From: a virus
Taxonomy: Duplodnaviria > Heunggongvirae > Uroviricota > Caudoviricetes
Direction: 5' to 3' (one strand)
IMG/VR virus record: IMGVR_UViG_2667527582_000006
Length of the DNA: 20,040 nt
Shown: piece after piece, positions 4,751 to 20,040 of the stretch
How the letters are laid out: every line of letters begins with the position of its first letter
Position numbering within the stretch: position 1 is the stretch's first letter
Notes under the pieces: model-generated
The model's input: only the letters and a program-made list of their open reading frames with translations
Told to the model about the DNA's origin: nothing
The model's database searches: none
Made by a program: the position numbers and the translations under genes

Positions 4751-4808
4751 AAAAAGGGCGGCAGAGCAGTCACGGAGTAAAACTGATACCGCCAAACGTC
4801 ACCAGAAA
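4751..4808 (-). ncRNA. dicF: DicF small regulatory RNA
   Basis: Minus-strand sequence UUUCUGGUGACGUUUGGCGGUAUCAGUUUUACUCCGUGACUGCUCUGCCGCCCUUUUU matches remembered DicF, with a 3' U-tract; sits between ydfC and dicB as in Qin. Confidence 0.7.
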
Positions 4809-9469: not shown

Positions 9470-9652
9470 ATGCGAAAGTTTAAAATAATTATTGAAACGG
9501 GAATAGCCGGTGGAGATTTCGAGGATGAATTCGAAGTGGATGATGATGCGACGCCTGATGAAATACATGACGAAGCAAAAGATATTTTCTTTAACTACTG
9601 CAATTACTCATATCACGAAATAAAAGACGAAGAGGAAGAACAAAATGGCTGA
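9470..9652 (+). CDS. Small highly acidic protein (60 aa)
   Basis: MRKFKIIIETGIAGGDFEDEFEVDDDATPDEIHDE...; SD AGGAGG separated from the ATG by a GNRA-loop hairpin. Confidence 0.45.
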   Translation: MRKFKIIIETGIAGGDFEDEFEVDDDATPDEIHDEAKDIFFNYCNYSYHEIKDEEEEQNG

Positions 9653-9821
9653 TTTTGGTTCAACTAAATACAACGTCAGTTTTGAAGAATGGCATGAACT
9701 GTTAATGGACTATGCAGAGTTACGTGGTGGCAGTGCTGCTGATGCTGAAGCATGGCGTGATGATTATGAAGCAGGAAAAACTCCGGTCGAAGCATATTGT
9801 GATGAGTGGGGCGATGAATGA
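9645..9821 (+). CDS. Small acidic protein (58 aa), not in the ORF track
   Basis: Manual translation MADFGSTKYNVSFEEWHELLMDYAELRGGSAADAEAWRDDYEAGKTPVEAYCDEWGDE; GAGGAAGAA SD; start overlaps the upstream stop and its stop overlaps the next ATG (ATGA). Confidence 0.4.
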   Translation: MADFGSTKYNVSFEEWHELLMDYAELRGGSAADAEAWRDDYEAGKTPVEAYCDEWGDE

Positions 9822-10134
9822 GCGAGGTTAATTATCAGGAAGGGCATGAAACGGCGGGGCAAGCAAAAACAGTGGCATGGCGATATCGCTACGTGAAAAA
9901 AAAGGCGTTACGGACTTTCAGGGGAAGTAGTGGTCTGGTGACTGGAAATATGTACCGAAAAAAGAGGATTGTAACGACAGGCCGAACTATGAAATTCAGG
10001 CCTTATTCACTGCCCCGCCAGTCCCGGTTACATCAGAAGAACTGGTTAAAGCTGTGCACTTTTATGAACAACTAAAACGCGAAAATCCACCAGCATCCGG
10101 AAACCTGATTACAGATTCCCAGATAAGGCAATGA
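9818..10134 (+). pseudogene. Hypothetical gene with apparent frame disruption: ATG frame 9818-10075 and a more protein-like -1 frame from 9931 to 10134
   Basis: Annotated frame after the A8 tract (9896-9903) is K/R-rich and junk-like; the -1 frame encodes ...DWKYVPKKEDCNDRPNYEIQALFTAPPVPVTSEELVKAVHFYEQLKRENPPASGNLITDSQIRQ but has no start codon. Confidence 0.3.
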
Positions 10135-10304
10135 GCTACCTGGCGCAGAACGGGCTGATAAGTATGGGGAATGTTTTACGATGAATATTTAGACTAAAGA
10201 GTTTGTAACGCTATGTAAGTGATTTTTTCTGGTTTAGATATTTATATGTCCGGCCAAATTGAGGTGTGTTTAAATGTAATTGCACATTGATTGTAGGAGG
10301 AATA

Positions 10305-10484
10305 ATGAAAAACGCATTGCAGTTTTTGTTTGTTGCGTTCTGGTTGTTCGTATCATGTATGCCCATCATCTTCACAGCAAGGTATATGGAAAAAGTTGAT
10401 GTTTTGATATTAATATTTGGATATATAAATGCCCTTTTTTTAGGGGTGTTCATGGCGGTCATGTGCATTGAATACTGGCGGTAA
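10305..10484 (+). CDS. Small hydrophobic membrane protein (59 aa, two predicted TM segments) in an AT-rich moron
   Basis: MKNALQFLFVAFWLFVSCMPIIF...LILIFGYINALFLGVFMAVMCIEYWR; strong AGGAGG SD; AT-rich surroundings. Confidence 0.5.
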   Translation: MKNALQFLFVAFWLFVSCMPIIFTARYMEKVDVLILIFGYINALFLGVFMAVMCIEYWR

Positions 10485-10629
10485 ATACAGCGAACGCCAT
10501 TGGTTTAGTTGGATATTTACTGTGCCGGACAAAAACGGTTTGCGGGGAAATCTTAGTTAAGTAGAATGACTGCGGGTGCTTGAGGCTATCTGTCTCAGGC
10601 ATGAACACCAAAAGGCAGATAGAGAAAAG

Positions 10630-10693
10630 CCCCAGTTAACATTACGCGTCCTGCAAGACGCTTAACATTAATCTGAGGCCATATCTATGCGAC
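10630..10693 (-). ncRNA. Putative Sok-like antisense RNA of the hok locus (extent approximate)
   Basis: Minus-strand promoter-like TTGACC (10729-10724), 18-nt spacer, TAATCT (10705-10700); the transcript would be antisense to the leader-ORF start region, as in hok/sok. Confidence 0.3.
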
Positions 10694-10746
10694 ACATAGA
10701 GATTAGCCTCTTACGGACCGAAAGGTCAAGGAGAAGCAGGCTATGA
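10687..10746 (+). CDS. Putative mok-like leader ORF (19 codons), translationally coupled to hok
   Basis: ATG at 10687; stop TGA overlaps the hok ATG (cuAUGA). Confidence 0.3.
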   Translation: MRHIEISLLRTERSRRSRL

Positions 10747-10898
10747 AGCAGCAAAAGGCGATGTTAATCGCCCTGATCGTCATCTGTTTAACCGTCATAG
10801 TGACGGCACTGGTAACGAGGAAAGACCTCTGCGAGGTACGAATCCGAACCGGCCAGACGGAGGTCGCTGTCTTCACAGCTTACGAACCTGAGGAGTAA
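10743..10898 (+). CDS. hokD: Hok-family type I toxin (HokD/RelF-like, 51 aa)
   Basis: MKQQKAMLIALIVICLTVIVTALVTRKDLCEVRIRTGQTEVAVFTAYEPEE: single TM helix and conserved Hok periplasmic tail with Cys. Confidence 0.85.
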   Translation: MKQQKAMLIALIVICLTVIVTALVTRKDLCEVRIRTGQTEVAVFTAYEPEE

Positions 10899-10966
10899 GA
10901 GACCTGGCGGGGGAGAAATCCCTCGCCACCTCTGATGTGTCAGGCATCCTCAACGCACCCGCACGT

Positions 10967-10993
10967 AACCCGCTTCGGCGGGTTTTGTTTTTT
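10967..10993 (+). terminator. Rho-independent terminator of the hok transcript
   Basis: CCCGC-TTCG-GCGGG hairpin followed by TTTTGTTTTTT. Confidence 0.7.
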
Positions 10994-11065
10994 CCTGGCA
11001 TTCTGGTTTACAATTCGCACGCCAGCCTGAACAACTGGCACCTGCTGCGCCAGCAGAGACAACCG

Positions 11066-11344
11066 ATGGCGCACGATACCAAATTACACAATTCTAATGA
11101 TTCTGCCGTCTTTGCCAGTAGGTGCGGACGGCGTTTTCACGCATTCAAATCAGACTGGTTCCAGCATCCTCCATGCACTGAAGAGCAGGCGGAATGGATA
11201 ATTCAGTGTTACCGCAGGCGCGGATACGAGGTTAAGAAAGCTCTTAGCCTCGACTACCGTCACTGGATAATCTCAGTCAGACTCCCTTACTCCGAACGCC
11301 CACCGCGTTCATCCCGCACATACCAGCAACGGATCTGGAGGTAA
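11066..11344 (+). CDS. Hypothetical small protein (rem-like position between hok and ydfU)
   Basis: ORF in frame with track ORF 10937..11344; the first ATG downstream of the hok terminator is at 11066; stop abuts the ydfU-like start. Confidence 0.45.
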   Translation: MAHDTKLHNSNDSAVFASRCGRRFHAFKSDWFQHPPCTEEQAEWIIQCYRRRGYEVKKALSLDYRHWIISVRLPYSERPPRSSRTYQQRIWR

Positions 11345-11345
11345 C

Positions 11346-12395
11346 GTGCGGGTATTACTTCGACCTGTTCTGGTACCGGAACTCGGGGTGGTGATCGTTA
11401 AGCCGGGCCGTGAATCCATGCCGGTATTCCACAATACCCGGGTACTGGTGGAGCCGGAACCGAAAAGCATGCGTAATCTGCCGTCCGGGGTCGTTCCTGC
11501 CGTTCGCCAGCCGCTGGTGGAAGACAAAACATTGCTGCCGTTTTTCAGTAACGCACGGGTGATTCGTGCTGCTGGTGGTGCTGGTGCATTGTCTGACTGG
11601 CTGTTGCGCCATATTAAATCCTGCCAGTGGCCACACGGCGATTATCACCACAGTGAAACCGTCATTCACCGTTATGGTACCGGCGCAATGGTGTTGTGCT
11701 GGCACTGCGACAACCAGCTGCGTGACCAGACATCCGAATCACTCGAGCAACTTGCTCATCAAAACCTGTCAGCATGGATGATTGACGTCATCGGTCACGC
11801 AATAAGCGGTACGCAGGAGCGTGAATTATCTCTGGCTGAATTATCCTGGTGGGCGGTCCGAAATCAGGTGGCGGATGCGCTACCTGAAGCGGTATTACGT
11901 CGCTCGCTGGGATTACCAGCGGAAAAAATCCGCTCAATGTACCGCGAAAGCGACATCGTACCGGGAGAGCAGACCGCCACCAGCATATTGAAACAGCGCA
12001 CAAAAAATCTTGCACTGTTGCCTCACGCCCACCAGGAACAACACCCACTACAGGAAAGGACGGTGGTAAGCATCACCGTTGATCCTGAGTCTCCGGAATC
12101 TTTCATGAAGCTACCTAAACGTCGCCGCTGGGTTAAGGAGAAATACACTCGCTGGGTGAAGACACAGCCGTGTGCTTGCTGCGGTATGCCAGCCGACGAT
12201 CCGCATCATCTGATTGGTCACGGGCAGGGCGGAATGGGAACCAAAGCACATGATCTTTTTGTGTTGCCTTTATGCAGAAAGCATCACGACGAACTGCATA
12301 CGGATACCGTGGCATTTGAAGAGAAGTATGGCTCCCAACTGGAGCTGATTTTTCGATTTATCGATCACGCGCTGGCAATTGGTGTGCTGGCCTAA
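11346..12395 (+). CDS. ydfU: DUF968-family prophage protein (YdfU-like, 349 aa) with C-terminal Cys/His-rich HNH-like segment
   Basis: GTG start with GGAGG SD; C-terminal CACCGMPADDPHHLIGHGQGGMGTKAHDLFVLPLCRKHHDELH; size and position match remembered ydfU. Confidence 0.7.
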   Translation: MRVLLRPVLVPELGVVIVKPGRESMPVFHNTRVLVEPEPKSMRNLPSGVVPAVRQPLVEDKTLLPFFSNARVIRAAGGAGALSDWLLRHIKSCQWPHGDYHHSETVIHRYGTGAMVLCWHCDNQLRDQTSESLEQLAHQNLSAWMIDVIGHAISGTQERELSLAELSWWAVRNQVADALPEAVLRRSLGLPAEKIRSMYRESDIVPGEQTATSILKQRTKNLALLPHAHQEQHPLQERTVVSITVDPESPESFMKLPKRRRWVKEKYTRWVKTQPCACCGMPADDPHHLIGHGQGGMGTKAHDLFVLPLCRKHHDELHTDTVAFEEKYGSQLELIFRFIDHALAIGVLA

Positions 12396-12412
12396 TTTTG
12401 TGGAGTAAGTTG

Positions 12413-12459
12413 ATGCGTGATATTCAGATGGTTCTTGAGCGTTGGGGAGCGTGGGCGGC
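12413..12459 (+). CDS. Antitermination protein Q-like, N-terminal fragment only (truncated by the assembly gap)
   Basis: MRDIQMVLERWGAWA... with GGAG SD; reading frame runs into the N tract. Confidence 0.5.
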
Positions 12460-12469
12460 NNNNNNNNNN
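12460..12469. other. Assembly gap (10 N)
   Basis: Run of n characters in the sequence. Confidence 0.97.
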
Positions 12470-12481
12470 AATTCATATCAA

Positions 12482-12506
12482 CGGACCTCCACGGAGGTCC
12501 GTTTTT
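12482..12506 (+). terminator. Rho-independent terminator-like hairpin just right of the gap
   Basis: CGGACCTCC / GGAGGTCCG perfect inverted repeat followed by TTTTT. Confidence 0.6.
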
Positions 12507-12665
12507 GCATTCTAAGCCCGCCAAAACCAACATTCCTACAATCCCTTAACTCCACCCAACTCAATCAACTTCAACCCGCATCAAGTCCCTTGCGAGGGTA
12601 CAACTGAGGGTATAGTCTGATTCGATAAAATTTATACCCCTTTTTACTATCAGGAGATACCGCCA

Positions 12666-13928
12666 ATGGCGCTCACTGACGCTAAAATCCGTGCCGCTAA
12701 ACCGGATGAAAAACCTTATAAACTTGCCGACAGCGGCAACATGTTCTTGCTCGTTCACCCTAACGGCTCTCGCTACTGGCGGCTCCGCTATCGGTTTCTG
12801 GGCAAAGAGAAAACGCTCGCTCTGGGGGTCTATCCTGAAGTCTCGTTATCAGAAGCAAGGGAAAAACGCGATACGGCGAGAAAGCTGATAGCTGAGGGAA
12901 CTGACCCATGCGAACAGAAAAGGATCAAAAAGTCGGTACCCGAAACAGCTCAGACATTTGAAGGCATCGCAAGACAGTGGCATAAGAGCAACAAAAAATG
13001 GTCAGCCTCACACAATGAGAGGATACTGAAAAGCCTCGAAACTCATGTTTTCCCCTTTATTGGTTCACGTGACATTACCACCCTCAGGACTCCCGATTTA
13101 CTTGTTCCCGTTAAAGCAGCCGAAGCAAAGGAGATATATGAAATCGCAGCGCGCCTTCAGCAGCGTATCACTGCAATCATGCGCTATGCTGCCCAGTCAG
13201 GCATTATCACCTATAACCCTGCCTTGGATATGGCTGGCGCGTTAACCACAGTGAAACGCCAGCACCGCCCTGCCCTCGCCTTAAATCGCATTTCAGAGCT
13301 TCTTGAACGACTGGATGCCTACAGAGGACAACCTCTCACCCGGCAGGCAACTAAACTCACCCTGCTTATCTTCATCCGTTCCAGCGAACTACGCTTTGCC
13401 AGGTGGTCTGAGATCGACTTCAAGAAAGCCATGTGGACCATTCCTCCTGAGCGGAAACCTATTGAAGGGGTCAAGTATTCCCATCGTGGCTCAAAAATGC
13501 GAACAGAGCATCTTGTGCCACTATCTACTCAGGCGGTGAATATACTGAAGCAGATCCACACTATCAGCGGAGAACATGAACTGATTTTCACCGGCGATCA
13601 CAATCCATGGAAACCCATGAGTGAGAACACTGTAAATAACGCACTGCGTCTGATGGGCTATGATACAAAGGTCGATGTCTGTGGTCACGGCTTCCGGGCA
13701 ATGGCCTGTAGTTCGTTGATTGAGTCAGGTCTTTGGTCCAGAGATGCGGTAGAACGGCAGATGAGCCATATGGAACGCAATTCGGTGAGGGCGGCGTATA
13801 TTCATAAAGCGGAACATCTGGATGAGCGCAAGCTGATGTTGCAGTGGTGGGCTGATTTTCTGGATGCCAATCGGGAAAGGGGAATTACGCCGTTTGACTA
13901 TGCGAAGATCAACCGGGGTAATATGTAG
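12666..13928 (+). CDS. P4-type (CP4-like) tyrosine integrase
   Basis: 420 aa; N-terminal MALTDAKIRAAKPDEKPYKLADSGNMFLLVHPNGSRYWRLRYRF arm-binding signature; C-terminal HGFRAM...RAAY catalytic motifs; AGGAGA SD. Confidence 0.85.
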   Translation: MALTDAKIRAAKPDEKPYKLADSGNMFLLVHPNGSRYWRLRYRFLGKEKTLALGVYPEVSLSEAREKRDTARKLIAEGTDPCEQKRIKKSVPETAQTFEGIARQWHKSNKKWSASHNERILKSLETHVFPFIGSRDITTLRTPDLLVPVKAAEAKEIYEIAARLQQRITAIMRYAAQSGIITYNPALDMAGALTTVKRQHRPALALNRISELLERLDAYRGQPLTRQATKLTLLIFIRSSELRFARWSEIDFKKAMWTIPPERKPIEGVKYSHRGSKMRTEHLVPLSTQAVNILKQIHTISGEHELIFTGDHNPWKPMSENTVNNALRLMGYDTKVDVCGHGFRAMACSSLIESGLWSRDAVERQMSHMERNSVRAAYIHKAEHLDERKLMLQWWADFLDANRERGITPFDYAKINRGNM

Positions 13929-13946
13929 CATATGTGTTTAAATATA

Positions 13947-13988
13947 TTAGCTCAGATTTGATCTGACACAGCTCTGGCACAGAGCTAA
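13947..13988. repeat. Nested palindromic element downstream of the integrase
   Basis: TTAGCTC...GAGCTAA outer arms enclosing TCAGAT-ttg-ATCTGA and AGCTCTG-gca-CAGAGCT. Confidence 0.4.
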
Positions 13989-14095
13989 ACCTAATCTGCA
14001 GGCAGCTCTGTTCCATAGGCGGAAGTTTATCTTTGTAGCCTAGATGCCAGTTAGGAAGAAAATAGAGACAGGAAAGATGATGACTAAATCAGTCT

Positions 14096-14118
14096 CCCAC
14101 CCGCACTGTGCGGGTGGG
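14096..14118. repeat. GC-rich hairpin (9-bp stem CCCACCCGC / GCGGGTGGG), possible terminator in the convergent intergenic region
   Basis: Perfect inverted repeat with 5-nt loop; lies between the convergent integrase and MTase genes. Confidence 0.35.
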
Positions 14119-14458
14119 ATATGTCTTTCCGAGAGAATACCGGCGGCAGCGAGCATCGTTAATTTTAGCTACAAAAGCTGTCCGGAGATGGCGGGTCAAG
14201 ATCAGTCGGAAGATCTCTAAAAGTGGATGGGCCGTTTTGCTGGGATTCTTAGATTGGCAAAAAAGTGGTGAAGCCATCAGATAGGAAGTGGATGGCGCAG
14301 TATTCAGTCTAACACTGAGGAATATTGTGATAATGAAAAGGCTACATATGTAGTGATGTGATTTACTCCCATAGCAAACGCAAACTGTGGCAGTATTACA
14401 TTGGCTGCTTCAGGAAAGGGGGCATCACATCACGACATTTTCTTCCACTGCAGGGTCA

Positions 14459-15775
14459 TTAGCCTGCTGTTCGCTCCAGACCCTGGTTCTTACCAGCCAG
14501 TATTTCGGCTTTTTTCATAGTTTCGACCAACTGTTCCGAGACAGCACGGATGACATTCATGCAGACAGAGTTGCCAAATTGCTTGTAGATCTGGCCCTGT
14601 GAAACAGCATCGACGATGTAGTCGTCAGGGAATCCCTGTAGACGTGCACATTCGCGCGGAGTTAGCTTGCGTGGGTTCCTACCCAAATGTGACTGGTCAA
14701 TCAGGATTTCGGAGCCGTCCTTGTAATAACGTGCACTGATGGTATTAGTGTATTCGCTGTCCTTGTTGAAAAGAGAATAGCCGAAACCGTTACCTTTCTT
14801 TTCGTGTTCCAGTTTCCGTTTCTGGTGGCCTATCCACAGTCTATCCGAGATGGTATATCTGTCTTGTGATAGAGGCAGACGATCGAGGTCTTCCAGAATG
14901 TCACCAACACGGGTCGGAGTCATAGGAGGTACCGGCCATCTGAATACACTGTCGAAATCCACGCCCCTATAATAGTCACGGTCAAAACCAACGATGAAAA
15001 TACGTTCACGGTTCTGGGGGGCACCGAAGTCACCTGCACGCAGTACACGGTAATCAACCCAGTAATTGAGTTTTTCGGACAGAGCATTGCGGGCATCCTC
15101 ACTAATCGGGATATCGTCCGGAACGGAATGGGTTCCATTGCCCCGCAGGATATCGAGAATGGTTTTCAGGGTACGACCCTTATCATGTCCCTGCAGTTGC
15201 TTGACATTTTCCAACATGAATGCCTTTGGACGCTTGGCTGTCATTATCCGCTGAATTTCGAAGAACATGGTTCCACGGGTATCGCTGAAACCTTTTTTCA
15301 AACCGGCCTGTGAAAAAGCCTGGCATGGAAATCCGCCAAGCAGTACATCGTGATCAGGAATGTCGGATGCCGGAATTCTAGTGATGTCACCTTGGGGCAT
15401 TTCGCCGAAATTCGTTAGATAGGTCTTCTGGGAGAACTTGTCCCATTCGGATGAGAATACACAGTGCCCTCCCTGCTGCTGATAAGGAAGACGAATACCT
15501 CCGATACCAGCAAACAGATCGATGAAGGTGAAATTGCATTCATTTTCAGGCTTCTGGCGGAAAGGTGCGTTTTCCAGATATTCAGTCATCTTCTTTTCCA
15601 CATCGAGAATGGCCTGCCATTTGGCGGAAGACGGTTCATGTTCCTCTTCTTCCCATCCTCGGACTGTACGTTCTCCGGTGGCACCGAGTCCGAGAAGATT
15701 GGCAAATTCGGTGCGACCTATGCCTAATTTTTTTCTCATATTTTTGATATATTGGAATTTATTCTTACTGTCCAT
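14459..15775 (-). CDS. DNA (cytosine-5)-methyltransferase, Dcm/EcoRII/SsoII family, with N-terminal HTH regulatory extension
   Basis: Motif I FIDLFAGIGG, motif IV GGFPCQAFS, ENV, QNRERIFIVG, TISARYYKDGSEILID, TPRECARLQGFPDDY; N-terminal GIGRTEFANLLGLGATGERTVRGWEEEE HTH-like segment. Confidence 0.9.
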   Translation of the reverse strand: MDSKNKFQYIKNMRKKLGIGRTEFANLLGLGATGERTVRGWEEEEHEPSSAKWQAILDVEKKMTEYLENAPFRQKPENECNFTFIDLFAGIGGIRLPYQQQGGHCVFSSEWDKFSQKTYLTNFGEMPQGDITRIPASDIPDHDVLLGGFPCQAFSQAGLKKGFSDTRGTMFFEIQRIMTAKRPKAFMLENVKQLQGHDKGRTLKTILDILRGNGTHSVPDDIPISEDARNALSEKLNYWVDYRVLRAGDFGAPQNRERIFIVGFDRDYYRGVDFDSVFRWPVPPMTPTRVGDILEDLDRLPLSQDRYTISDRLWIGHQKRKLEHEKKGNGFGYSLFNKDSEYTNTISARYYKDGSEILIDQSHLGRNPRKLTPRECARLQGFPDDYIVDAVSQGQIYKQFGNSVCMNVIRAVSEQLVETMKKAEILAGKNQGLERTAG

Positions 15776-15887
15776 CCCATGCTCACCTTATCCGGTTTTA
15801 TTCCCGGCGATAGTATCACTGTACGGATGATCAATCAATGAGGGGGTCTCATGTCTATCGACATTTCTGGGCATAGTCCGAATCTTT

Positions 15888-17162
15888 TCAGACTGTAAAA
15901 ATTTCGCGGGTCAGTTCTACCAGCTTTTCTCCTGTTGAATACAGCCGAAGTAGTTCTAGGGGATCCTGGTAATGGCAATGAATCGGCGGATATTCGGACA
16001 GACAGTCAGCTTCTGTAACCAGAACCTTTCCCCTTTCCGCAACATGGACAGCCCTGAGTGGCTTTTCTGTTCCAGGAAAAATGAAATGGTTTGTGATGTG
16101 GGTACCGACCGGCACTAGGTAAGAAAGCGCCTTCTGGTAGAAAAACTGTTTTACCAGATCCGGCCAACCAGGAGCACTATCCGGTGTCTTCGCATCATAG
16201 TATTTGGCATCTATGATCGCGACGTGCGTTTTTTCTGCATTGTGGAGAACCGTATCCGTTCTCTGGCTCTTGTTGGCAACGGGAACAAACCTGTCACTGC
16301 CGGCCCGATACACGGGAATAGGCAATTTATTGTTAACTCGGTATTTACCCACCAAGCATTCATCCAGCATGGCTTCCCACAGACTGTGAAACTTCCTGAC
16401 ACCGATAAGAACCCCGCCATTCCGCATTCCTCTCCCTGTTTCAAGATACATGATCAGTCTCCGCAAAAGGAAAATATCCCTTTCGGAATAGCTGAACTGC
16501 AGTTCTCTTCTTAGGTGTACAACCCATGAGAAAACATTTCCCTCAGGACGCGGAACATTCTGCAGTCGTTCAGGAGTGCCCTGACTGCCTGTCCAGAGCA
16601 TTCCGTATACCGGATAGAGCTCCCTCATTACAGAGGCATGAATCTTTGCTGTCTCGCTATCGGTGAGGTAGCGCGAACGTGTGGTTACAGGATCGATATA
16701 TACAGGCCCAGATGGGCTAGTATAGGCAGTCCCTCGGGCAATTGTCTCCGGCCATACAACTTTTCCGGAGTTGGTTGTATCGACTCTAATCCGGCGGACA
16801 TAGAGACCATTCGTCTGATAGTCGTCAATCAGTGCAGTTGCCAACGACAGGGATTCACCACCGATAAGTCCGGTTCCTGCATCCCCATCAAAAACACCGG
16901 TGTCTCTATCTCGGTAGAATTTCAGGAGTGAGCGGAGCAGATAATGTGCTGAAAGAGCCTGCGATTCACGAGAAGAACTGTTATTTCGTGGCAGAAATAC
17001 AGCCAGACCTCCACTGAAAGACATGACTCCACAGAAATGGATTTTCTGCATGTCGGGGGCCAGCAGCCCCCTGTTTCTCAGCTCATCGAGCACGGTCGCA
17101 GGAATACTGCGATCGGTGACAGGTGTCCTGTCTGAAAGATACAGAATATCAGCTGGCAACAT
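15888..17162 (-). CDS. McrC-like PD-(D/E)xK nuclease subunit
   Basis: 424 aa; C-terminal HVAIIDAKYY matching the (D/E)xK catalytic core; start overlaps the upstream AAA+ gene by 14 nt. Confidence 0.7.
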   Translation of the reverse strand: MLPADILYLSDRTPVTDRSIPATVLDELRNRGLLAPDMQKIHFCGVMSFSGGLAVFLPRNNSSSRESQALSAHYLLRSLLKFYRDRDTGVFDGDAGTGLIGGESLSLATALIDDYQTNGLYVRRIRVDTTNSGKVVWPETIARGTAYTSPSGPVYIDPVTTRSRYLTDSETAKIHASVMRELYPVYGMLWTGSQGTPERLQNVPRPEGNVFSWVVHLRRELQFSYSERDIFLLRRLIMYLETGRGMRNGGVLIGVRKFHSLWEAMLDECLVGKYRVNNKLPIPVYRAGSDRFVPVANKSQRTDTVLHNAEKTHVAIIDAKYYDAKTPDSAPGWPDLVKQFFYQKALSYLVPVGTHITNHFIFPGTEKPLRAVHVAERGKVLVTEADCLSEYPPIHCHYQDPLELLRLYSTGEKLVELTREIFTV

Positions 17163-19089
17163 CTTGCGGATCCCTGTTCATGTCAACAGGAGTGCCCACC
17201 CCTTCAAGTCTGTTCTCTACGGCAGTGGAGAAAACAGCCATGTCATTGCGAAATGCTGCAGATAGGTTGCCGAACGTTCTGAAGGTAGACGCAAATATTT
17301 TCTGGTGTCCGACATGTCTCAGCACATCATCCCACAAATAGATGAACAGTTTTCCGCCAAGGGCAGCTTTCGCTGCTTCCCTATTTTCCAGTTCTTTAGA
17401 ATCTAGGAAAAACGGGCCGATCAGACGATCCTCTGCTATTTCACATTCGACAAGGGTGTCATTAATAATTTGAGCAAAATCGCGCCAGAGTACCGAATAT
17501 TTTCCTGAATTGGTGGTGAAAACGATTTCGGTTTGTGGGATCTCCGGTTTTGATAAATCGATTGGTAGATATTCGAAATTCCAGCGCCGTTTGAATGCAG
17601 TATCCAGCGGCATAACTGCCTGATCACTGCTGTTCATGGTAGCCAGTAGAGACATATTGGACGGGATCCGTAAGCTATCGACAGGAGTACATCCCATAGT
17701 ACCTAGTTCCGTATTTATATACTCGATCATATCCGGATCAGTGGCATTGATGCTGTAGGTACTCGTTCCATCAGGCTCCCTGTCTAGAAGCTGGAAAAGC
17801 TCGCCGAAGACAGCTGCAGCAGAAGCACGGTTGATTTCTTCGATAATGAGACAGACCTTTCTGTCTGGACGAGCAATGGCCAGTATGAGTGCGCAGGTAA
17901 AGGGGCCTGGTCTGAAACTGTAGGTTATGCTGCTTTCTCCCTGTTCATTCTTTTCCATTTTAGGCTTCAGGGCACCGACAAAATCGTTATGCTGAGTATC
18001 AGGATGGAAAACTGTGACAATCTTTTCTGCACCGTCACTCATTTCACCATGGACCCTGTAGCTTTTTCCCGTACCGGGTGCCCCATAGAAGATTCTGTTC
18101 GTTCCACCGGTCACTCTAGGTCCGGATACGGAGGCTCTGGTCGATGACTCGAAAAAGAACTTGCCCTCTCTGTTCCGGATACTCATCCCCAGCCATAAAC
18201 CGGAAACCAGAACCGATATTTTTTCAAGTGAATCGGGAGTATCCAAGAGACCCTTTCTGATGAAAATATATTTCTCCAGCGGAACAGAAAAATGGACGGG
18301 ATTCTGGACATACAGCGCATTGCCGGGTTCCCTGGATGGGCGGAGAAGAAATGCCCTGTCTATATCATTCCATGAAACAAATTCGGCATCGGGGTCAGTC
18401 CCCAGTAAAGGCTCAAACTGACCGGACCAGCCAATGGTTGTCATTATTCTGAACAGCAGTTCATCCCCATCAGGAACACTGAACATATAAGGAAGACTGG
18501 GCATATATCTCCTTTGAAGGTAATCATATGTTTCTTGAGAACGCACCAGATCAAGAATCAGGGTACCGAGTGTTTCCGAGCTTACATTCGGGACCGGCAA
18601 TGATGCCAGCAAGACCGATTTGACAAAATCATCGGATTGCCTATAACTCTTTTTCCCAGTTTTTGAGCTCGTGTTTATTAGATTTTTTGCCTCAAGTCTT
18701 GTTCTGGGATCTTTGAAAGCCCAGAAAAAGTTACTGCGGCTGTAGATGTCCAGCGAAACGAGCGCCTGCTCGTTTGACGTTCCGCTTTCGATCATTGCTT
18801 CGAATTCTGCCGGAAACATATTTTTTTTGATTTCTTCGAATACAGAGATGTAGTTGTCCAGTAGTCTTACAAATGGCCCAATCTTTAGCATATACATCAG
18901 ATACTGGCATGGTATATAACAGTGATACCCGCTTCCAGTTTTCATCCGTGCTGTATGGTCCAGCAATGTCAGTCCGGTTGTTGATAGAACCGTTCTTGTT
19001 TCATCATCGAATCCGATCTCATCGAATTGCCATGCCGATTCAGGTTCATTTTTGAACCAGTTCATCACCATATCCAGTTCTGAAAGCAT
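17149..19089 (-). CDS. McrB-like AAA+ (AAA_5) NTPase with about 330-aa uncharacterised N-terminal domain
   Basis: Walker A GAPGTGKS; Walker B/McrB signature LIIEEINRASAAAVFGELFQLLDR; NxxD-like MNSSD; N-terminal 330 aa without recognisable motif. Confidence 0.75.
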   Translation of the reverse strand: MLSELDMVMNWFKNEPESAWQFDEIGFDDETRTVLSTTGLTLLDHTARMKTGSGYHCYIPCQYLMYMLKIGPFVRLLDNYISVFEEIKKNMFPAEFEAMIESGTSNEQALVSLDIYSRSNFFWAFKDPRTRLEAKNLINTSSKTGKKSYRQSDDFVKSVLLASLPVPNVSSETLGTLILDLVRSQETYDYLQRRYMPSLPYMFSVPDGDELLFRIMTTIGWSGQFEPLLGTDPDAEFVSWNDIDRAFLLRPSREPGNALYVQNPVHFSVPLEKYIFIRKGLLDTPDSLEKISVLVSGLWLGMSIRNREGKFFFESSTRASVSGPRVTGGTNRIFYGAPGTGKSYRVHGEMSDGAEKIVTVFHPDTQHNDFVGALKPKMEKNEQGESSITYSFRPGPFTCALILAIARPDRKVCLIIEEINRASAAAVFGELFQLLDREPDGTSTYSINATDPDMIEYINTELGTMGCTPVDSLRIPSNMSLLATMNSSDQAVMPLDTAFKRRWNFEYLPIDLSKPEIPQTEIVFTTNSGKYSVLWRDFAQIINDTLVECEIAEDRLIGPFFLDSKELENREAAKAALGGKLFIYLWDDVLRHVGHQKIFASTFRTFGNLSAAFRNDMAVFSTAVENRLEGVGTPVDMNRDPQDVAS

Positions 19090-19116
19090 ACTTGTCCCGT
19101 CCTTGCATGAGAAAAA

Positions 19117-20040
19117 TTAGTCATACTTGATCCAGAGATTTCTGGATATTGTCTGTCGCATGTTTTCAATAAATTTCTTGTTCTGGTCCGAAAACTGAGA
19201 GTTTTCATACTGCCCCATAAAAAACAGCAATTCGGCCAGTGCACAGCCCTGGTCTTTCGCCTGATTTTTCATCACGGGATGTTCAGTATTGATGGTAATG
19301 AAATGATCGTCCCCGTAACCAGGTTCCCACAATGAACCGTCGGCTGTTTTACCGAAACGAATATCGATGTCGTCAGGAGCAGTCATCATTACCCTAAATC
19401 TAGGCAGATTGCCGCTTTTTCCAGAAAACAGGAGCCTAAATTCGAGTAGGGCATTGAATATGATAGCCAAGGCATCACTGAAACCTGAACGGTAAATATT
19501 ATAACGGTCGGCAATGATATTACCGAACATGTCAGTATTGTCCTGCCCGATGGTGTCACATCCCTGAATGTTGTTCACCAGATCCTTTACCGGACTCGGC
19601 ATGAATAGACGGGCATACTTTTTCCCTTGGTGAGCAAGCGATTTTGCGATCCTATCACCGGAAAACCTGAACTCTGAAAGGCCCAGAAGCTCCGCGATTT
19701 CATATATCATACGGACAATTCTGCAATTTTCAGGCAGATGTTCATCCACCCACGTGGACAGTGCTGGTATTTCCGCTTTAAGCTTGTCGGTTGGAAGATT
19801 TGTCACTTCCAGCCCGAAGGTACTCTCGAATGACTCTTTTTCGCTGAAAACGGCAGCGCTTGCTGCTACCTGATAAACAAAATCTGCAATTATCAGATCT
19901 GATTCATCGAATATTCGATTGAACAGGTCAATCGGCAACGGAATCCTGTTCTGCCAGAAAATCAGTCCATCTACCCTGTAACTGTGGTTTTTGTCGTAAA
20001 GGTAACGTTTGAAATCGGCCAGATCGTATTCATAATTCAT
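19117..20040 (-). CDS. Hypothetical protein (307 aa), first gene of the McrBC-like/MTase cluster
   Basis: ORF begins with ATG exactly at the window edge and ends 27 nt upstream of the McrB-like start; no motif recognised. Confidence 0.5.
   Translation of the reverse strand: MNYEYDLADFKRYLYDKNHSYRVDGLIFWQNRIPLPIDLFNRIFDESDLIIADFVYQVAASAAVFSEKESFESTFGLEVTNLPTDKLKAEIPALSTWVDEHLPENCRIVRMIYEIAELLGLSEFRFSGDRIAKSLAHQGKKYARLFMPSPVKDLVNNIQGCDTIGQDNTDMFGNIIADRYNIYRSGFSDALAIIFNALLEFRLLFSGKSGNLPRFRVMMTAPDDIDIRFGKTADGSLWEPGYGDDHFITINTEHPVMKNQAKDQGCALAELLFFMGQYENSQFSDQNKKFIENMRQTISRNLWIKYD

Follow-up and report, generated by a model that had tools for sequence, protein, structure and literature searches.

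A gene for a small, very hydrophobic protein adjoins the hok/sok toxin-antitoxin locus in the stretch of viral DNA considered here (IMG/VR record IMGVR_UViG_2667527582_000006, 20,040 nucleotides (nt), hereafter the window), which is a Rac/Qin-like lambdoid prophage of Escherichia coli. Judged from the conservation of its frame, this plus-strand open reading frame (ORF) of 59 codons is a protein-coding gene, and it belongs to a new, two-branch family in lambdoid prophages of E. coli and Shigella that is common yet overlooked. We put at about 60% the probability that the product is a genuine envelope micro-protein of 59 residues, a moron-like accessory factor residing in an exchangeable slot and plausibly acting in phage exclusion. 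As it stands, it is an ordinary kind of prophage accessory gene. The features on which the account turns are the following.

10305-10484, plus strand: gene of the 59-residue membrane micro-protein, type A (ATG at 10305, TAA at 10482-10484)
10295-10300, plus strand: Shine-Dalgarno (SD) sequence AGGAGG, four nt 5' of the ATG

The 59-codon gene and its predicted product

An earlier reading of the DNA letters, made without database searches and called here the sequence-only reading, had described a very hydrophobic ORF of 59 codons with a strong SD, and both descriptions hold for the frame at 10305-10484 and the AGGAGG that precedes it. The grand average of hydropathy (GRAVY) of the product is 1.31 with two hydrophobic peaks, and position 10298 within the SD shows an A/G polymorphism, seen in 7 of 87 loci.

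Exhaustive phmmer searches returned a paralogue, type B (P0040/P0046; HMPREF0358_2809 in E. coli 83972), which also has 59 residues and shares 41% amino acid identity with type A, the form present in the window. Between the two types, the 180 nt from ATG to TAA align without a gap at 59% nucleotide identity (type B at 829-1008 of locus L093), unlike the flanks, where many gaps are needed. Identities by codon position amount to 35, 43 and 29 of 60, and Nei-Gojobori estimates give a dN of 0.46, a dS of about 2.0 and an omega of about 0.23, compared with 0.49 and 1.3 in the shifted frames. An 85-residue ORF on the minus strand, labelled 'hornerin' in ON470612, was considered as the actual gene and rejected, as stops interrupt its type-B counterpart. 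Because the conserved frame is gapless, its omega is low and the antisense ORF is broken in the paralogue, the plus-strand frame is taken to be the coding one.

The gene is also well preserved within its own type. Start and stop codons are unchanged in 118 of the 119 IMG/VR copies retrieved with a motif pattern that constrains codons 18-47 only and neither end of the ORF, so that some 99% remain intact although the sampling placed no constraint on the ORF ends. Among the 87 type-A loci, variable sites number 3.9 per 100 nt in the ORF versus 9.2-9.5 in the non-coding parts of the surrounding cassette, and the ORF is devoid of indels.

Of 5426 complete E. coli genomes, 1570 contain the type-A segment, at 95-100% identity, and 1045 contain type B; nearly a third of these genomes thus carry the former and about a fifth the latter, yet no curated family exists. 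Matches came solely from E. coli and Shigella across GTDB, IMG/VR, metagenomes and 1.84 billion representative proteins, with the close relatives (at least 91% identity) labelled just 'hypothetical protein', and neither type is annotated in the RefSeq (PGAP) records inspected. No branch beyond A and B emerged from phmmer on the 1.84 billion representatives, from GTDB genomes, metagenomes and IMG/VR, or with a 47-bit motif pattern. One 53% match, L012 (CP178302.1, E. coli ECMA0423), was set aside, as single-base indels run throughout its module, hok included; they look like uncorrected long-read assembly error and not biology.

Searches for remote relatives were negative. Pfam profiles gave zero families at E <= 10, with Hok_Gef, GhoT/OrtT and holins included; PHROG yielded only phrog_2720, of unknown function, at a non-significant E of 0.93; PADLOC defence and exclusion models gave 0 families; NCBIfam and PDB-sequence searches gave nothing significant; and Foldseek found no significant fold match in PDB or BFVD. 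Weak matches to TIGR04104, TIGR03647 and generic helical hairpins fell far below threshold. A housekeeping homologue, an outcome that the sequence-only reading had considered, was not found by Pfam, PHROG, phmmer or NCBIfam. In the literature, no paper with the peptide sequences was found, and the topics of hokD, prophages and small membrane proteins and of the Rac record MN652886 returned nothing relevant. The gene is a concrete case of a widespread, predicted small envelope protein missed by annotation pipelines.

The product had been described as a two-helix membrane protein. Two helices are indeed predicted by AlphaFold2 from a shallow alignment (residues 2-24 and 31-58; predicted local distance difference test score 72.8), but the first of them fits a lipoprotein signal peptide, which had been missed. 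The N-terminus opens with M-K or M-R-K, continues with 12-13 apolar residues and closes with (L)F-V/A-S-C18 in type A or (I)V-I-S-C18 in type B. Both branches fit G+LPP-type and PROSITE-type lipoprotein patterns, with Cys18 as the lipidation site. The background rate of these patterns is 7 in about 2200 unrelated ORFs of the collected loci, several of the seven being apparently genuine lipoproteins, and 2 in 57 among unrelated ORFs with a hydrophobic N-terminus. The published lipobox consensus is [LVI][ASTVI][GAS]C, with FVGC among the recorded departures from it (PMC6139136). V-I-S-C18 of type B agrees with the strict consensus, and type A, whose lipobox in the window reads F-V-S-C18, fits the looser patterns.

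The second hydrophobic segment, residues 33-55, is predicted as a 23-residue transmembrane (TM) helix, after which only E-Y-W-R follow. In both types, this helix bears a conserved GxxxAxxxG motif with an asparagine (G39xxxA43xxxG47 and N42). Glycine zippers and intramembrane asparagines promote helix-helix association. Twenty positions in all are invariant between A and B, namely M1, L5, L8, W13, S17, C18, P20, I21, I22, T24, L36, F38, G39, N42, A43, L44, G47, E56, W58 and R59. Taken from these features, the protein is probably a lipid-anchored membrane protein. Residues 1-17 would act as a type II (lipoprotein) signal peptide, and the mature product of 42 residues would be anchored through Cys18 at the periplasmic face of the inner membrane, with about 14 periplasmic residues, one C-terminal TM helix and a cytoplasmic end of four residues. 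If uncleaved, the protein would form an N-in/C-in helical hairpin of the same topology. It may act through helix-helix contacts within the membrane, by means of the glycine zipper and Asn, with itself or a host inner-membrane protein as the partner.

The exchangeable cassette and its repeats

The gene occupies a segment that fills a variable slot from the last gene of the early/nin region to the hok promoter and whose limits are given by comparison with related prophages.

9818-10184, plus strand: remnant of an upstream early/nin-region gene, frameshifted and deleted, a PGAP pseudogene in the sister prophage L001
10181-10192, plus strand: vestige ATGAATATTTAG, which reads M-N-I-stop and derives from a 27-residue hydrophobic ORF, its ATG overlapping the upstream stop (ATGA)
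10185-10526, plus strand: AT-rich cassette-specific DNA, 342 bp, 35.4% GC

The marked AT-richness remarked on by the sequence-only reading is evident, with 35.4% GC in the cassette versus 47.5% in the window and 51.1% in the adjacent hok/sok module. In the upstream remnant, the PGAP pseudogene ends at 10134, and the ancestral, true stop is the TGA at 10182-10184; window positions 10112-10184 match the C-terminal end of gp23 in L009 and of HP4 in L007. L009 has blocks in common with the window at 9600-10094, 10112-10184 and 10527-10986, and relative to it about 0.9 kb (gp21, gp22 and most of gp23) is deleted between window positions 10094 and 10112. Between the equivalents of 10184 and 10527, L009 has 75 bp only, with a 27-residue hydrophobic ORF, MTWPEAFTTVGIAMAVALVVYSICRWG, whose start codon shares bases with the stop codon of the preceding gene (ATGA). 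The window keeps the ATGA followed by M-N-I-stop; on this comparison, the 342 bp of AT-rich DNA therefore replaced the small ORF, up to the junction (C/T)AAAAACGGTTTGCGG before the hok -35 hexamer. The 27-residue ORFs form an unannotated hydrophobic family of their own, M[TSIN]WPEA...Y[SV]ICRWG, located directly 5' of the hok promoter in many prophages (3058-3141 in L009, 1245-1328 in L138 and 1424-1507 in L140).

Exchange at this position is seen repeatedly. The 59-codon cassette is absent from L009, L138, L139 and L140, and in L007, a Rac record, the same flanks enclose a different AT-rich cassette of 455 bp with an unrelated 87-residue ORF. L138 combines the 27-residue ORF with a 34-residue single-TM ORF, and L139 has no small ORF. 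The 34-residue ORF of L138 (1363-1467; WP_001278450.1, MSDDISLAMEGALAVIAVVGVYCLVVFLMDRLGN) has a strong SD and is followed by a perfect palindrome, CGATATGGGAATTCCCATATCG. A separately exchangeable segment of distinct composition, akin to the separately acquired cassette that the sequence-only reading proposed, is thereby supported by presence in some related prophages and by replacement or absence in others. Among 78 IMG/VR hok loci whose Hok is identical to that of the window, the slot upstream of hok contains the 59-codon ORF in 15, the 27-residue ORF alone in about 17, the 27- and 34-residue ORFs together in about 7 and no small hydrophobic ORF in 34. A small hydrophobic ORF occurs in the 560 nt upstream of hok in 44 of the 78 (56%) versus 14% of control segments from the same loci, an enrichment that is descriptive only, as the sampled loci are related.

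In all loci with the 59-codon ORF, homology to the window extends from at least about 10100 through the hok leader. Its right end falls at 10985-10992 or at an insertion sequence (IS) at 10744, and in other contexts the left high-scoring segment pair ends at 10098-10110, so that the last 85 nt or so of the upstream gene (10098-10184) always accompany the cassette. The mobile unit, as delimited by these alignments, is composed of the upstream-gene tail, the cassette and hok/sok, about 0.9 kb in total (about 10098-10990), and it is found in differing prophage backgrounds.

The type-B locus (829-1160 in L093; about 5230-5560 in L094, from JJ1886) belongs to a decayed Rac-type prophage remnant beside ttcA, the Rac attachment region, in which an integrase fragment and a DUF1627 fragment are followed by the type-B ORF and this by chromosomal genes including uspF and ompN. 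About 55 nt beyond the type-B stop codon comes a hok remnant, its 3' half, which matches the hok of the window at 78% identity over 90 nt and has an internal stop; the hok 5' part, mok and sok are deleted. Both branches are thus located upstream of hok or a hok remnant, and by this measure the linkage of the 59-codon ORF with hok is old. The flanks of A and B are 72-78% identical versus 59% in the ORF, and synonymous divergence in the ORF is 0.70 versus 0.22-0.28 in the flanks. Since synonymous sites in the ORF have diverged further than the neutral DNA next to it, the comparison points to ORF alleles older than their flanks, and to a mosaic in which alleles were replaced while the frame was conserved. 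Positive selection was rejected as an explanation of the divergence, given that synonymous divergence (0.70) is also far above that of the flanks.

The sequence-only reading had further reported that the ORF segment is bracketed by imperfect direct repeats, which it took as a sign of acquisition. Local alignment locates the two copies as follows.

10230-10258, plus strand: direct repeat copy 1, in the 5' untranslated part of the cassette
10501-10533, plus strand: direct repeat copy 2, at the cassette's 3' end, from where it continues into the junction CAAAAACGG common to other hok loci

The repeats are real. Their best alignment has 26 matches, 2 mismatches and 3 gaps, and its score of 15 is reached by 0.6% of dinucleotide shuffles and 0.23% of real 89-nt window segments (p of about 0.002-0.006). 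They do not bracket the cassette, however, as the cassette-specific DNA spans about 10185-10526, which places copy 2 at the right edge and copy 1 45 nt in from the left one. No copy is present in the cassette-less relatives compared (L009, L007 and L138-L140), and the best that type B offers is a pair scoring 9.5 (p = 0.29). Many type-A alleles have a mutation in one copy, and the copies are no better conserved than the neighbouring DNA. A single-copy empty site was not found among the matching E. coli records, 1553 of 1571 that match 10150-10540 carrying at least 80% of it. The one short partial match examined, H100, was considered as an empty site and rejected, being an IS1 truncation.

Because both copies lie inside the cassette, are absent from the paralogue and have no single-copy counterpart, the repeats, as far as such comparisons tell, are internal and lineage-specific, and not recombination ends or insertion scars. 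It is in our view highly improbable that the ORF segment was inserted by way of the repeats, be they sites of recombination or attachment or the product of a target duplication, which is one form of the cassette idea of the sequence-only reading, even with an alignment score above chance. Two further observations fit such an insertion: in the window, each copy closes with CCGGNCAAA and a TTGNGG hexamer comes next, and in L138 the hok-promoter junction, GGGTAAAAACG(G)TT(T/C)GC(C/G)GG, is present as a direct repeat on either side of the 34-residue ORF (1315-1335 and 1497-1518). As a speculation, copy 1 could be a decayed duplicate of that junction. Duplicated promoters were not adopted as the explanation, as the likeness of the copies ends with the TTGNGG, and the candidate promoter at copy 1 (TTGAGG-18-CACATT) would start transcription inside the SD. 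A regulator site was rejected, the motif being present only at the two cassette positions across the window and 339 loci.

The hok/sok neighbour and the surrounding prophage

The identity of the right-hand neighbour as hok/sok had escaped the sequence-only reading, and the following features define it.

10540-10567, plus strand: hok promoter candidate TTGCGG-16-TAGAAT, just 5' of the hok mRNA start (promoter scan)
10574-10745, plus strand: leader of the hok mRNA, including the sok antisense region (Rfam RF01794, 106.7 bits, E = 1e-23)
10729-10700, minus strand: Sok promoter candidate TTGACC-18-TAATCT (promoter scan)
10743-10898, plus strand: hokD-type gene for the Hok toxin, 50 residues, 51 codons with the stop (hokD, WP_000813254.1, in L001)
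10967-10984, plus strand: intrinsic terminator of the hok transcript and right end of the module of about 0.9 kb (terminator scan)

A mok-like frame at 10687-10746 has only 19 codons, its TGA overlapping the hok ATG (ATGA), and a 69-codon mok is present in L007; several indels segregate among loci in this part of the hok leader. In L003, L005 and 27 of the 87 loci, hok is interrupted precisely at its start codon (the equivalent of 10744) by an ISNCY-family element with the 59-codon ORF intact, in the context of a Qin-type remnant followed by ydfW and flxA.

Dedicated expression signals for the 59-codon gene are scarce. A strict consensus scan returned no promoter for it, and a position weight matrix scan gave weak candidates only, CTGATA-16-TACGAT (10155-10182) and the TTGAGG-18-CACATT of copy 1 (10259-10288), both scoring below the hok and Sok promoters. 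No terminator is found 3' of the ORF before 10967-10984 and no terminator hairpin in its 3' region, and a minus-strand terminator is absent within 9800-11100. Rfam has no match besides sok at the locus, where the best minus-strand promoter is that of Sok. An RNA element was considered and rejected, given this Rfam result and 5' and 3' regions that fold no better than shuffles; the SD is not in an unusually stable structure (z = +0.62). Judging from these scans, early transcription that reads through into the gene, a weak promoter or both probably account for its expression, with transcripts running into hok. The segment had been called a moron, of which the variable presence and distinct composition stand, and an own promoter and terminator are not evident.

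The prophages of strain FDAARGOS_536 and phage vB_EcoS-640R1 are 98-99.9% identical to the window. Its gene order runs from an integrase through a large exonuclease-domain gene, DicF, a CI-type repressor, Cro and YdaT to the replisome organiser, DUF977, DUF7167, small hypotheticals, the frameshifted pseudogene and the 59-codon ORF region, to the right of which lie hokD/sok, a hypothetical gene and DUF968. In the annotation of L001, the gene is thus placed between replication/nin genes and hok, with DUF968, RusA and Q genes downstream. A full-length DicF small RNA gene is located at 4756-4807 on the minus strand (Rfam RF00039, 76.7 bits). Homology to L001, which continues with RusA, Q and tRNAs, ends at 12388, and the window from 12400 to 20040 looks like an integrative restriction-modification or defence island inserted into the prophage, with a second tyrosine integrase at 12666-13928 and, on the minus strand, a C5 cytosine methylase, an LlaJI-type restriction endonuclease and a dynein-related AAA_5 (AAA ATPase) protein. 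L009 is deposited as PP818812.1 under the name 'Actinobacillus phage vB_Apl-pPE4'; its early region and hok are of the E. coli lambdoid type and 91-95% identical to the window, and its stated host seems doubtful.

Readings of function and comparison with known systems

In the explanation that we favour, the micro-protein would be an accessory factor of the lysogenic-conversion type, most plausibly hindering envelope steps of incoming phages. Such exclusion is our best guess at a function and purely inferred. If the protein is an exclusion factor or membrane modulator, it would represent a new family among the prophage micro-proteins that shape phage sensitivity, and the hok/sok neighbourhood would be a hot spot for them. 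Several observations weigh against this explanation. Recent polymorphism bears no mark of purifying selection, with 11 non-synonymous changes to 1 synonymous segregating in type A and 4 to 0 in type B, ratios that do not differ significantly from neutrality. PGAP has called the gene in none of the RefSeq records inspected, similarity to known exclusion or defence proteins was not detected in PHROG, Pfam, PADLOC or fold searches, and the strict definition of a moron, with its own promoter and terminator, fails here. As for the protein, the type-A lipobox has a non-consensus F at -3, and the 'mature' part is unusually hydrophobic for a lipoprotein.

Other readings have been considered. That the protein is a membrane-damaging toxin (type I-like, GhoT-like or a holin-like pore), which would depolarise the inner membrane by oligomerising and make a second toxin in the module, is unlikely, although it has fewer than 60 residues, is very hydrophobic, has in its glycine-zipper-like G39xxxA43xxxG47 and N42 what would suit oligomerisation and directly adjoins a bona fide type I toxin locus. 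GhoT, a type V toxin of 57 residues with two TM helices, resembles it in size and layout. Neither an antisense promoter/terminator pair nor a small RNA signal accompanies the gene, however; its SD is not unusually structured, Pfam has no match to Hok_Gef, GhoT/OrtT or holins, and the C-terminus has four residues only, unlike that of holins. Moreover, the ORF remains intact, with no recognisable antidote, where hok is destroyed, either by the IS at 10744 in 27 of the 87 loci or by the hok deletion in type B. The same persistence speaks against a functional partnership with Hok, in which the small protein might, say, modulate the insertion of Hok or confer immunity to it; we regard this as very unlikely. 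Such a role would account for the old linkage seen in both branches, for the small hydrophobic ORF found upstream in 56% of hok loci versus 14% of controls, and for the lack of a terminator between the ORF and hok, but the identical Hok is accompanied by the 59-codon ORF, by the unrelated 27- and 34-residue ORFs or, in 34 of 78 loci, by none of them. It is quite unlikely, too, that the ORF is a functionless evolutionary leftover that drifts neutrally and hitch-hikes with hok/sok. The 15 non-synonymous to 1 synonymous segregating changes of both branches pooled, the lack of dedicated expression signals, the many copies in decayed prophages and some truncated or frameshifted variants are what such a leftover would present; against it, frame and length have been kept down to 41% amino acid identity with an omega of about 0.23, the strong SD is kept, about 99% of copies are intact and variable sites are sparser in the ORF than in the non-coding DNA around it.

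A bolder form of the favoured explanation, which we hold to be quite doubtful, sees the position upstream of the hok promoter as a dedicated, fast-exchanging slot whose occupants include unrelated envelope micro-proteins of 27, 34 and 59 residues, with the 59-residue protein as a micro-lipoprotein, doubly anchored by lipid and TM helix, that determines specificity. If this were true, the protein could act by blocking the entry of DNA or some inner-membrane machine of the host, possibly in concert with abortive killing through Hok, and the greater age of the A and B alleles relative to their flanks would reflect allele swapping as at immunity and exclusion loci.

Among known systems, the class II holins and pinholins do not fit, as the 59-codon gene is outside the lysis cassette and its product ends in E-Y-W-R only. 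GhoT is alike in size and in the layout of two hydrophobic segments, and differs in that the 59-residue protein has no GhoT/OrtT Pfam match and its gene no adjacent GhoS-like gene. Like the neighbouring Hok, a Hok/Gef protein of about its size, it would be a hydrophobic peptide of the inner membrane, and it is encoded in the same mosaic module; it differs in having no Hok_Gef profile match and two hydrophobic segments where Hok has one, and its gene is without a mok-like leader, a fold-back mRNA or an antisense RNA signal. The small RNA gene that goes with type I toxin-antitoxin systems was not found at the 59-codon ORF in the Rfam, promoter and terminator scans.

The unimolecular spanin gp11 of phage T1 has an N-terminal lipoylation signal and a C-terminal TM domain (PMC6139136). 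This formal layout, a lipobox and a C-terminal TM domain, is present in the 59-residue protein, but its predicted periplasmic part of about 14 residues is much too short to reach across the periplasm, and its gene is in the nin region by hok and not in a lysis cassette. In T5, the small lipoprotein Llp blocks FhuA, the receptor of the phage (PMC9586334). The likeness to Llp and to Cor of phi80, N15 and HK022 consists in a small phage protein with an N-terminal lipoprotein-type signal. These are soluble outer-membrane lipoproteins without sequence or fold similarity to the 59-residue protein, whereas the latter, with a 23-residue TM helix and about 14 periplasmic residues, should remain in the inner membrane. 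The closest frame of comparison is the concept of Hendrix and Juhala, that of morons or lysogenic-conversion genes of lambdoid prophages. The 59-codon gene differs from morons in that it has no recognisable promoter or terminator of its own, takes the place of another small ORF instead of being simply inserted and travels with hok/sok, and it resembles them in its variable presence at the same position, its distinct GC content (35% versus about 50%) and its nature as a small accessory gene unrelated to phage core functions.

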